DNA of 64,000 bases from a virus (taxonomy: Duplodnaviria > Caudoviricetes), in the IMG/VR virus record IMGVR_UViG_3300032240_001498, positions 136,605 to 200,604 of that record, one strand, 5' to 3'. Position 1 is the first letter of the stretch; each line of letters begins with the position of its first letter. Of the stretch, positions 13,658 through 15,273 are shown piece by piece. A program made the translations under genes and the position numbers. The notes below the pieces were generated by a model. The model made no database searches and was not told the DNA's origin. It saw nothing but the letters and a program-made list of their open reading frames with translations.

Positions 13658-13823
13658 TTAAAACTCCAATTGTATTATATTTAGGTACAAACAACAAATG
13701 TCCTGGCGTACACGGATATTTGTCATAGTATACTGCAATATGAAAATCTTCTTTGTAAACATTATCCCAAGGTGCGGTGCTATCCTCAATTGAATCGGGG
13801 ATGTCGTTAAAAATCTTATCCAT
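13425..13823 (-). CDS. HIT-family nucleotide hydrolase
   Basis: It contains DKYPCTPGHLLFVPK and NVGLNYGPSAGQTVNWPHIHLIPR. The first His of the triad is replaced by Trp, while the central His is kept. Confidence 0.85.
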   Translation of the reverse strand: MDKIFNDIPDSIEDSTAPWDNVYKEDFHIAVYYDKYPCTPGHLLFVPKYNTIGVLNDAFEDAIREGKAMVEAGTWDGFNVGLNYGPSAGQTVNWPHIHLIPRRKGDVEDAIGGVRNTIPGKGNYRSPNYRAD

Positions 13824-14577
13824 GTATTTCCTTTAATGTTGGTGCATAGTTTCCGAGATGTTGTACAGTGATAGCACTGGCATTGATAGCAAATACAATG
13901 GCCTTATGCATGTCTAAAGTATTTAGGTATTCGTATGTTAGTGCAGATAAAAATGTATCACCTGCACCGCATACGTCTGCTACTTCTACGTTCCTTGCAC
14001 CGAACGCAAACTTGTCATAAATGACTCCGCGTTCACCGTAGGTAACAACTAATCCAGTAGTTGGAAAACTTGTAGCACGGCTATTTTCGAGTTCGTTAAT
14101 TTTAATAAAGCATCCTTCTAATCTTGCTAGGTCTGTTTTCTTTGTATCGACAAAAATTGGACCAGAGAATGTACCACGTAGGTCCTCAATTAAATCGTAA
14201 CTAACTGTACCTTTATTATAATCACTAATAACAATAGCATCGTAATCTGATAGTGTATCTTCTATTGTAAGCGGGAGTGATGCAACATCTTTATCAATGC
14301 GAACTATTTGCTGTTTACTGCGAGTATCAATAAGCCTAGTTTTAGTAGAAGTTTCACGATGTAAAAATTTTACATTGCATCCTAATGCTTCTAAATTCTT
14401 ACGCACATTCCCAGCCATACCTTCTTTGACGATATCGTACTTTGGTACAAACACTGGCACAGGTGCTTCAGGACTTATACGATCTACGCTACCGTATCTA
14501 TAGACGTCGGTGCAATCATCCCCGACTAATAATATCTTGAATGATTTTTGTTGTTGAGTATTCATCGATTCTGTCAT
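13816..14577 (-). CDS. HldA/RfaE-I-like heptose-7-phosphate kinase (PfkB family); start may be 14565
   Basis: It contains LVGDDCTD.Y.YG.V.RISPEAPVPV, G.AGNV..NL.ALG, ISDYNKG and the PfkB motif DVCGAGDTF. Confidence 0.85.
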   Translation of the reverse strand: MTESMNTQQQKSFKILLVGDDCTDVYRYGSVDRISPEAPVPVFVPKYDIVKEGMAGNVRKNLEALGCNVKFLHRETSTKTRLIDTRSKQQIVRIDKDVASLPLTIEDTLSDYDAIVISDYNKGTVSYDLIEDLRGTFSGPIFVDTKKTDLARLEGCFIKINELENSRATSFPTTGLVVTYGERGVIYDKFAFGARNVEVADVCGAGDTFLSALTYEYLNTLDMHKAIVFAINASAITVQHLGNYAPTLKEIHG

Positions 14578-14917
14578 ACCAAAAGATCTCTTTTACATAT
14601 TGTCCTGCTACTACGCTCTTGCCTTTCCAATCACTGCCCTTGACCATTATGTCCGGTTTGTAAAGTTTAAGCAATCTGATTAGGTCTTCTTGACTGTCAA
14701 AAAATTCCACAATATCTACAGCCTTGAGATTTTGTAGCATTACCTTACGAAAGACTTGATCGTTAATTGGACGAGTATCGCCTTTGAGCTCTTTAACCCT
14801 GCGATCAGTATCAATGCATACAATAAGATAATCGCCCAAACTACGAGCGGTGTTTAACATTGCTACATGCCCTGGGTGCAGGATATCAAATGTACCATTA
14901 ACTACTACGGTGGTCAT
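14516..14917 (-). CDS. HldC/RfaE-II-like heptose-1-phosphate adenylyltransferase
   Basis: It contains NGTFDILHPGH (HIGH), D..VKELKG..RPIN, VKGSDW and YSTTKII. Confidence 0.85.
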   Translation of the reverse strand: MTTVVVNGTFDILHPGHVAMLNTARSLGDYLIVCIDTDRRVKELKGDTRPINDQVFRKVMLQNLKAVDIVEFFDSQEDLIRLLKLYKPDIMVKGSDWKGKSVVAGQYVKEIFWYDRIDEYSTTKIIQDIISRG

Positions 14918-15273
14918 TTTTGACTGTCACCTTTGCCTACACGATAATTGTCTTCTACAGAGTCTGGAGTAGATACTTCAATAACTGTACCTGCTTCGAT
15001 ACACTCTAATTGATGTGGCATACAGGGTGTGTTATGCCAAACAGCACCATCACGAACTTCTTTCTCGTGAACTTCGGCAGTAGCAGTATCAATCCAACGG
15101 ATAATAAATTTACCTGATTGTATGTACCAAGTTTCTTCTTTGTCTTTATGGAAGTGCATACTGAATTTTGCACCTGTGTTAAAGTTCATAAACTTTCCAC
15201 AGTACTTGTCGTTAGTGGCCCAGATAAATTCTGAACCCCATCCTTTTGGAACTAAGCCTTTTAATTGTGTCAT
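14914..15273 (-). CDS. Cupin-fold protein (sugar-phosphate isomerase-like)
   Basis: It contains KGWGSEFIWA, SMHFH..KEETWYI..G, P...HQL and EVST. Confidence 0.75.
   Translation of the reverse strand: MTQLKGLVPKGWGSEFIWATNDKYCGKFMNFNTGAKFSMHFHKDKEETWYIQSGKFIIRWIDTATAEVHEKEVRDGAVWHNTPCMPHQLECIEAGTVIEVSTPDSVEDNYRVGKGDSQK

Follow-up and report, generated by a model that had tools for sequence, protein, structure and literature searches.

Which sugar would a phage activate with a cupin, a HldC-like nucleotidyltransferase and a short HldA-like kinase that are encoded in three overlapping genes, and would that sugar end up on DNA? The question is raised by a stretch of 64,000 nucleotides (hereafter, the window), the last 64 kb of the 200.6-kb IMG/VR virus record IMGVR_UViG_3300032240_001498 (positions 136,605 to 200,604), for which CheckV estimates a completeness of ~55%. 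The source is a T4-like jumbo phage, with a GC content of ~40%; almost all of its genes are encoded by the minus strand. The original prediction, made from the sequence alone, described a split HldC plus HldA module with a cupin that might serve as the isomerase, and considered DNA, virion proteins and host lipopolysaccharide (LPS) as possible targets of the resulting NDP-sugar (nucleoside diphosphate sugar). Our comparison of the sequences suggests, with moderate confidence, that we are dealing with a mobile cassette, complete in itself, for NDP-heptose synthesis; its three genes would belong to a "short-form Hld" family typical of phages, in which the cupin replaces GmhA. The genes and their overlap are as follows.

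14914–15273, minus strand: cupin, 119 aa (phrog_7851, 2.5e-41; AlphaFold2 (AF2) model, pLDDT 92.9)
14516–14917, minus strand: HldC-like nucleotidyltransferase, 133 aa (PF01467, 8.4e-17; phrog_7878, 7.2e-45)
13816–14577, minus strand: short-form HldA-like PfkB kinase, 253 aa (TIGR02198, 133.6 bits)
14516–14577, minus strand: out-of-frame overlap between the 3' end of the nucleotidyltransferase gene and the 5' end of the kinase gene (62 nt, or 50 nt from Met5)

All three genes that had been predicted here, with their translational overlaps, are present. The stop of the cupin gene and the start of the nucleotidyltransferase gene share 4 nt. Read off the sequence, the next overlap comprises 62 nt when counted from Met1 of the kinase and 50 nt from its second Met (Met5), in agreement with the predicted minimum of 50 nt, and the TGA stop of the nucleotidyltransferase falls within the GDD codons of the kinase. 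The profile positions and a comparison with E. coli HldE also bear out the reversed order relative to the fused enzyme: here, the nucleotidyltransferase precedes the kinase. An identical 62-nt overlap is found in three relatives (L004, L005, L007) and in chromosomal loci of Ferruginibacter. A megablast search with positions 13000–16500 of the window against 50,697 phage records yielded no match, and relatives were found solely at the protein level. Two sets of loci served for comparison: 87 seeded from the kinase (80 viral contigs from IMG/VR, 4 contigs from metagenomes and 3 cyanophage records, with 6–10 kb flanks) and 79 seeded from the cupin.

The kinase, the nucleotidyltransferase and their probable product

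Among the NCBIfam profiles, TIGR02198 (rfaE_dom_I) gives the kinase 133.6 bits versus 43.2 bits for ribokinase, and the nearest solved relative by sequence is Burkholderia HldA (4e84). The top seven PDB fold matches to the AF2 model (pLDDT 93.8) are all B. cenocepacia HldA (4e84, 4e8y, 4e8z, 4e8w); these chains are retrieved with E-values of ~1e-19 and TM-scores up to 0.82, whereas ribokinases start at ~2e-14. The kinase is identical at 48 of the 62 columns that are ≥85% conserved among 45 canonical HldA/HldE sequences. Residues 19–41 carry the Hld-specific motif GD..D.Y..G...R(I/L)SPEAPVP, which is absent from RbsK and PfkB and appears here with the RISPEAPVP block; the ribokinase-fold GAGD is retained as well (G204-A-G-D207, invariant).

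In a phylogenetic tree with E. coli RbsK and PfkB as the outgroup, the kinase falls outside the canonical HldA/HldE clade. It belongs to a short-form clade of 68 rows (SH-aLRT 93), which includes all phage kinases along with a set of Bacteroidota sequences and is the sister group of the 45 canonical rows (97). Because this is a quick tree with long outgroup branches, we take from it only that Hld is the closest group and that the phage kinases branch outside it. The kinase appears to be closest to HldA, within a distinct short-form sister clade, and is predicted to possess heptose-7-phosphate O1 kinase activity.

For the nucleotidyltransferase, the best family is TIGR02199 (rfaE_dom_II; 124.5 bits vs 74.4 for TagD). 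The nearest PDB entry (5x9q, 5.5e-18), deposited as a putative cytidylyltransferase, is one that we take to be Burkholderia HldC; TagD follows at 1.7e-16. The protein is 42% identical to the C-terminal domain of E. coli HldE and keeps both the HxGH motif (GTFDILHPGH) and the C-terminal STT. The sequence around the latter is RIDEYSTT where canonical enzymes read (F/L)xxGxSTT, and it lacks the Arg of the STTR5 motif (defined in PMC11573728), differing from both described types. The claim of a split HldC plus HldA holds in the sense that these are the nearest families by HMM, structure and tree, but the pair is not a split canonical HldE. The kinase clade is the sister of HldA/HldE and lies outside the canonical clade, with scores below the NCBIfam cut-offs. 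Each of the three proteins matches a dedicated PHROG (phrog_8133 for the kinase, phrog_7878 for the nucleotidyltransferase and phrog_7851 for the cupin).

The window encodes a second protein of the cytidylyltransferase fold (46154–46660, minus strand; 168 aa; PF01467, 41 bits), which is 26% identical to the cassette nucleotidyltransferase and likewise 26% identical to the C-terminal domain of E. coli HldE. Its orthologue in the phage genome G001 (69% identical) lies in a 7-deazaguanine island, between genes for a phosphoribosyltransferase (PRTase) and a QueD-like (PTPS) protein.

Ferruginibacter/Chitinophagaceae loci supply the nearest cellular members of the short-form clade; the contigs that bear three of these loci measure 0.9–4.8 Mb. 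In the Ferruginibacter operon, the nucleotidyltransferase and kinase genes, with their 62-nt overlap, are followed by HldD (375 bits, above the equivalog cut-off) and then by a GT9 heptosyltransferase (PF01075, 98 bits). Given that the operon of these relatives thus includes both a genuine ADP-heptose 6-epimerase and a heptosyltransferase of the GT9 type, we read the product of the phage enzymes as NDP-heptose. In the five phage and cyanophage short-chain dehydrogenases/reductases (SDRs) that we scanned, the heptose 6-epimerase profile TIGR02197 is the best match (203–237 bits vs 53–77 for GalE). Of the 79 cupin-seeded viral loci, 14 have a GT9-like gene at a distance of no more than 5 kb from the cupin, and G001, a complete relative of 355 kb, encodes one member of the GT9 heptosyltransferase family (PF01075, 45.6 bits). 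The GT9 likeness of the cyanophage family T4-GC 302 is weak (Pfam E 0.0015; hhalign probability 10–61%) and is only a lead. With the kinase and the nucleotidyltransferase nearest to HldA and HldC by HMM score, structure and tree, the heptose product named in the original prediction is the best-supported reading.

Several further observations concern these relatives. In G001, the genes that flank the GT9 gene (L193 804–5279, ~323.8–328.3 kb) encode two 2-oxoglutarate (2OG)-Fe(II) oxygenases and a C-methyltransferase for NDP-sugars. Four further viral loci (L054, L055, L067, L082) have methyltransferase and GT9 genes just upstream of the heptose cassette, an arrangement that suggests transfer of a tailored heptose. 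The short-form hldC-hldA genes of Ferruginibacter/Chitinophagaceae (L089–L098, L101, L102, L108, L137) are nested among cyanophage sequences in the kinase tree, which points to transfer between phages and those bacteria.

The cupin as a candidate isomerase

When the AF2 model of the cupin is compared with the Swiss-Prot structures, the top 17 matches are the phosphomannose isomerase (PMI) cupin domains of XanB, AlgA and ManC (TM-scores 0.80–0.84); the match to this C-terminal domain spans residues 4–119. The PDB fold matches include D-lyxose isomerases and a 110-aa cupin PMI from Thermococcus. The 3His-1Glu metal site (H40, H42, E47, H87) is invariant in 58 homologues, and in an hhalign alignment with residues 365–420 of E. 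coli CpsB (probability 61%), H40, H42, K45, E47 and W49 correspond to Q, H, R, E and W. Furthermore, an exhaustive profile search identified two informative fusions. In P0244, a cassette-type NT5C-like phosphatase is joined to a cupin, and the cupin half passes the PF01050 (PMI) threshold (31 bits vs the cut-off of 23.6); in P0331, the partner is an HldC-like nucleotidyltransferase that is 36% identical to the one in the window.

The distribution of GmhA, the canonical isomerase, is complementary. With E. coli GmhA as the query, no homologue was detected in the kinase-seeded and cupin-seeded viral loci, in the loci of the short-form clade or in the window; the same query detects homologues in six canonical cellular loci that served as a positive control. 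In the Ferruginibacter loci, the cupin is not found beside the operon, and a true GmhA is encoded elsewhere in both genomes searched (212 bits, above the cut-off). Among the 81 picocyanobacterial genomes sampled, 62 gave no GmhA-like match and none gave a match above the cut-off, so that most cyanophage hosts cannot supply the isomerase step. [quoted passage not shown] The isomerase role originally proposed for the cupin is thus backed by the PMI fold, the gene fusions and the distribution complementary to that of GmhA; the cupin is a candidate for, and probably is, a metal-dependent S7P isomerase of the PMI type that acts in place of GmhA. Among the papers searched, none was found that proposes a cupin-type S7P isomerase.

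Several lines of evidence weigh against an NDP-heptose pathway with the cupin as its isomerase. Both Hld-like proteins score below the respective equivalog cut-offs (133.6 bits against 345 for TIGR02198 and 124.5 bits against 181.5 for TIGR02199), and the kinase, 253 aa long compared with ~310 aa, is missing two segments that are present in 4e84, of ~27 and ~23 residues. The only Pfam match of the window cupin itself is to Cupin_2, at 26.3 bits just below the cut-off of 27.2, and not to PF01050; sequence searches of the PDB with this protein retrieve only generic cupins (oxalate decarboxylase), and the top structural matches include the cupin of CapF, an NDP-sugar epimerase domain that is paired with an SDR. 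In addition, a GT9-type acceptor glycosyltransferase is absent from the 200 kb, as are the HldD-like and phosphatase genes that underpin the assignment to heptose in relatives, so that in the source phage this assignment rests on orthology.

The cupin matches bring up an alternative under which the kinase and the nucleotidyltransferase still make NDP-heptose, with an isomerase supplied by the host, and the cupin is a tailoring enzyme, either a CapF-like epimerase that works with the HldD-like SDR on a keto intermediate or an oxygenase. Not only the CapF cupin domain but also its homologue WbjC is among the top structural matches, the cupin and HldD-like SDR genes are often adjacent, 3His-1Glu sites are found in dioxygenases and decarboxylases too, and the label of the cupin family in PHROGs is "cysteine dioxygenase". 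However, the cupin is kept in cassettes that contain no SDR (the source phage, L004–L008 and L061), and the fusions link it to a sugar-bisphosphate-type phosphatase and a nucleotidyltransferase rather than to an SDR. A homologue passes the PMI threshold, as noted above, most of the sampled picocyanobacterial hosts lack GmhA, and in the Ferruginibacter genomes, where GmhA is present, HldD has been retained but the cupin has not. We consider a tailoring role unlikely, albeit with a real chance of being correct.

The sub-threshold scores of the two Hld-like proteins, together with their separate clade, would also fit activation of another sugar. For example, the cupin could convert fructose-6-phosphate to mannose-6-phosphate, and the subsequent phosphorylation at C1 and nucleotidylation would yield an NDP-hexose or an NDP-sugar phosphate. 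Indeed, the closest structural relatives of the cupin use hexose phosphates, and the 200-kb record of the source phage contains neither an HldD nor a GmhB-like gene. Such genes, which are heptose-specific, are nevertheless carried by orthologous cassettes; the cellular members of the clade adjoin a true HldD and a GT9 heptosyltransferase, and GT9-like genes lie close to the cupin in the 14 loci mentioned above. A hexose product thus appears improbable, and NDP-heptose remains the preferred assignment.

In one locus (L115, 5770–6906), the cassette cupin open reading frame (ORF) is extended to 378 aa and includes an HNH endonuclease domain (PF01844, residues 212–248). This may be an intein or a homing endonuclease insertion, and the contig, 363 kb long and binned as Paceibacterota, may be a mis-binned jumbo phage.

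Spread of the cassette and its place in phage genomes

The trio is an ordinary, minimal member of a known and widespread phage cassette family, which is common among phages of oceans and lakes and the annotation of which in cyanophages dates from P-SSM2. A tblastn search with the kinase found matches in 33 phage records, all at 28–46% identity, including the cultured T4-like cyanophages P-SSM2, S-CAM1, S-CAM3, S-SSM7, S-T4, S-SM2 and P-TIM68. Relatives of the cassette proteins number in the thousands in the protein database, and a scan of IMG/VR produced at least 583 confirmed stretches. Among the kinase-seeded loci, 84 contain the nucleotidyltransferase, 78 the cupin and 65 the SDR, with any other gene present in at most 12; among the cupin-seeded loci, the nucleotidyltransferase is found in 72 and the kinase in 65. 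Because the gene order varies across the loci, we regard this as a mobile cassette with a core trio. The source phage and its close relatives (L004–L008, L014, L173) carry the core trio alone.

The phosphatase is the variable component. Roughly a quarter to two-fifths of the tallied phage cassettes encode one, and it belongs to one of three unrelated types depending on the lineage: a small haloacid dehalogenase (HAD) of the EcbF/BcbF type (12 loci), a GmhB-like enzyme (11 loci; NF006506, 141.5 bits) or an NT5C-like enzyme (11 loci). In the cyanophages, the small HAD family T4-GC 306 (L001 6728–7072, which is PSSM2_311 of P-SSM2; L002 6731–7054; L003 7670–8005) is labelled "phosphoheptose isomerase". 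Its members are small HAD phosphatases that match TIGR01689 (EcbF/BcbF, 1e-08) and the PDB entries 9iqw (1e-10) and 1xpj; on the strength of these matches, the label appears to be wrong and looks like a propagated misannotation.

In the window, the trio is bounded by the following genes.

13425–13823, minus strand: HIT-family protein, 132 aa (PF01230, 6e-09), the downstream boundary
15270–15521, minus strand: 83-aa ORF, a backbone gene at the upstream boundary
15506–16006, minus strand: PRTase (PF00156, 1e-12), the upstream boundary

The HIT gene sits right after the kinase, in the position occupied by the HAD phosphatase in the cyanophages, and its start, preceded by a good Shine-Dalgarno sequence, overlaps the kinase stop by 8 nt. 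One could imagine, then, that the HIT protein also belongs to the pathway, as a fourth enzyme that replaces the phosphatase or swaps the nucleotide through GalT-like or phosphorylase chemistry, all the more so as the nearest solved structures include Ap4A phosphorylase, along with HIT and Fhit. Its motif reads W-P-H-I-H-L-I, with a Trp instead of the first His and with the nucleophile and the third His kept, and PF01230 is matched at 36.9 bits, above the cut-off. The comparative evidence speaks against membership. In the relative L174, the HIT gene directly follows the PRTase gene, with no cassette in between; an extra cupin intervenes between kinase and HIT in L173, and L014 shows a gap of 335 nt. 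HIT is found in only 6 of the 87 kinase-seeded loci and 1 of the 79 cupin-seeded loci, and in general HIT chemistry targets the alpha-phosphates of nucleotides, not the 7-phosphates of sugars. A role of HIT in the pathway is very improbable: given the arrangements in L174 and L173, we reject it as a cassette member or phosphatase substitute, and HIT is a backbone gene. A 226-aa ORF (12977–13657, minus strand) shares 233 nt with the HIT gene but is read in a different frame; its long start is probably not real, given that the calls in relatives begin after the HIT stop and comprise ~150 aa.

The interval between PRTase and HIT is a variable cargo slot. Nothing occupies it in L174, whereas elsewhere (L004, L005, L007, L173) it houses the heptose cassette, alone or together with MazG, a second cupin, a dCMP deaminase or an IMPDH-like gene. 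The PRTase and the 83-aa ORF are backbone genes of this slot, with the cassette as its cargo. In G001, the slot (L183 6194–8950, ~139.2–142.0 kb) contains PRTase, an HldC/TagD-like nucleotidyltransferase, a QueD-like PTPS, a 132-aa protein, HIT, an HldD-like SDR that is 29% identical to E. coli HldD, and a QueE-like gene; the heptose cassette of this phage is located 150 kb away. Sugar-nucleotide genes thus recur beside HIT in the deazaguanine island. In the deazaguanine-bearing locus L011 (4325–5296), a bona fide GalE (TIGR01179, 293 bits, above the cut-off) is encoded directly upstream of the cupin, with weak SDR matches (22–23%) in the corresponding place of L027, L028 and L059, and adjacent to FolE in G001 (~134.3–135.3 kb).

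The surroundings of the slot bear on the question of whether the sugar is destined for DNA, as the original prediction had allowed. The cassette is embedded in an island of FolE, PRTase, QueE-like and glycosyltransferase genes, with a GT-B glycosyltransferase at 19612–20712, and the same-island location is seen in L004–L008, L011, L014, L027, L028, L059 and L173. It is conceivable, then, that the cassette supplies the donor to this glycosyltransferase, resulting in heptosylated, 7-deazaguanine-modified DNA; if true, this would be a purine DNA hypermodification with a seven-carbon sugar. Comparative genomics disfavours this link. The available 14 kb of L174 contain no cassette, although the DpdA-like gene, FolE, PRTase, HIT, the QueE-like gene and the glycosyltransferase (81% identical) have all been retained. 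Conversely, the complete genomes of the cyanophages P-SSM2, S-CAM1 and S-SSM7 contain the cassette but neither a DpdA-like gene nor FolE. Distances of 157 kb and ~25 kb separate the cassette from the DpdA/FolE genes in the complete or near-complete genomes G001 and G002, respectively; for about 75 of the 87 cassette loci, the surrounding 6 kb are free of deazaguanine genes, and the slot itself holds unrelated cargo in other relatives. Given this evidence against a link to the 7-deazaguanine genes, we put the chance of DNA heptosylation very low indeed. The glycosyltransferase of the window shows no similarity to the GT9-like gene of the cyanophages.

The proposed route and its known counterparts

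[quoted passage not shown] The 7-phosphate would be removed by an enzyme encoded outside the available 200 kb, be it a host enzyme, a promiscuous one or one encoded in the missing part of the genome. The HldC-like nucleotidyltransferase would then transfer a nucleotide to form NDP-heptose, which would probably serve a glycosyltransferase, none of which was identified for this role in the record, for the decoration of virions or of a surface component. As the available 200 kb yielded no HldD, the sugar would remain in the D,D form.

In agreement with the original prediction, the window contains no GmhA or GmhB, and the search for these genes that it called for was also negative across the 200.6-kb record (~55% complete); family searches and tblastn with E. 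coli and phage queries found no GmhA, GmhB or HldD in either. Neither in nor near the cassette, nor elsewhere in the available 200 kb, did we find a phosphatase for the 7-phosphate. Mutants of E. coli in gmhB are only partly defective, which makes the phosphatase step the most dispensable one.

The closest biochemical precedent is the bacterial ADP-L-glycero-beta-D-manno-heptose pathway, with which the phage trio shares a homologous kinase and nucleotidyltransferase and the logic of isomerase, C1 kinase, 7-phosphatase and nucleotidyltransferase. The differences are substantial: a PMI-like cupin instead of the SIS-fold GmhA, a kinase that is ~60 aa shorter and belongs to a sister clade, separate genes in the nucleotidyltransferase-kinase order with the 62-nt overlap, R..YSTT in place of (F/L)xxGxSTT in the nucleotidyltransferase, and the lack of GmhB and HldD in the 200 kb of the source phage. 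The Ferruginibacter/Chitinophagaceae hldC-hldA-hldD-GT9 operon is similar in its short kinase from the same clade (41–47% identical), in the gene order and in the overlap, but it is cellular, has no adjacent cupin, occurs in genomes with a true GmhA at another location and continues into a true HldD and a heptosyltransferase.

Among viruses, the direct counterpart is the heptose or "LPS" cassette of cyanophages (P-SSM2 PSSM2_309–313, T4-GC 304–308; S-CAM1, S-SSM7; PHROGs 7878, 8133, 7851). Its nucleotidyltransferase, kinase and cupin are orthologous to those in the window (42–54%, 42–46% and 34% identity, respectively), and the nucleotidyltransferase and kinase genes overlap in the same manner. 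Unlike the window locus, the cyanophage cassette additionally encodes the small HAD phosphatase, an HldD-like epimerase, a NolO-like carbamoyltransferase and the weakly GT9-like protein, and adjoins tail-fibre genes, whereas the window has the core trio only, in another gene order and inside a nucleotide-metabolism island. In cyano- and pelagimyophages, rfaE-like and heptose genes have been listed among the auxiliary genes related to LPS (PMC7378029, PMC7029224). According to two commentaries (PMC11461863, PMC11573728), Tang et al. (Science 2024) reported functional NDP-heptose enzymes in viruses and stated that a viral phosphatase was absent.

For the cupin, the nearest analogues are the type II PMI domains (AlgA, XanB, ManC) and the stand-alone PMI of Thermococcus kodakarensis (7zvy). 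The fold is shared over the whole length (TM-scores 0.80–0.84; 0.80 by target for 7zvy), the metal-site motif aligns, and the reaction would be analogous, from a ketose phosphate to a manno-configured aldose phosphate. The window cupin differs in having no PF01050 match, ~18–21% identity, His rather than Gln as the first ligand and a presumed seven-carbon substrate.

A parallel in logic is provided by the phage UDP-arabinose (Afh) route (RB69, DLP3, HY126), which serves arabinosylated hydroxycytosine DNA (PMC13326640). It also proceeds through an isomerase, a C1 kinase, a phosphatase and a nucleotidyltransferase, and the cyanophage cassette phosphatase matches the same 1xpj-type small HAD phosphatase. 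The isomerase (SIS), kinase and nucleotidyltransferase families are, however, unrelated, and the product of the Afh route demonstrably reaches DNA, a role that is unsupported in the present case.

The module in the window is best viewed, then, as a minimal copy of a widespread mobile cassette and not as part of the neighbouring DNA-modification system. Within the cassette family, a strong case can be made for the cupin as a candidate S7P isomerase that has gone unrecognised and is non-homologous to the known one, and unrelated enzymes have taken over the phosphatase step on at least three occasions. Which target the cassette phages heptosylate has been a question since the P-SSM2 genome. NDP-heptoses are LPS precursors and agonists of innate immunity. 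If the proposed route is correct, huge numbers of aquatic phages would be able to make these compounds, probably from an intermediate of the Calvin cycle and the pentose phosphate pathway, in hosts that mostly lack the pathway.

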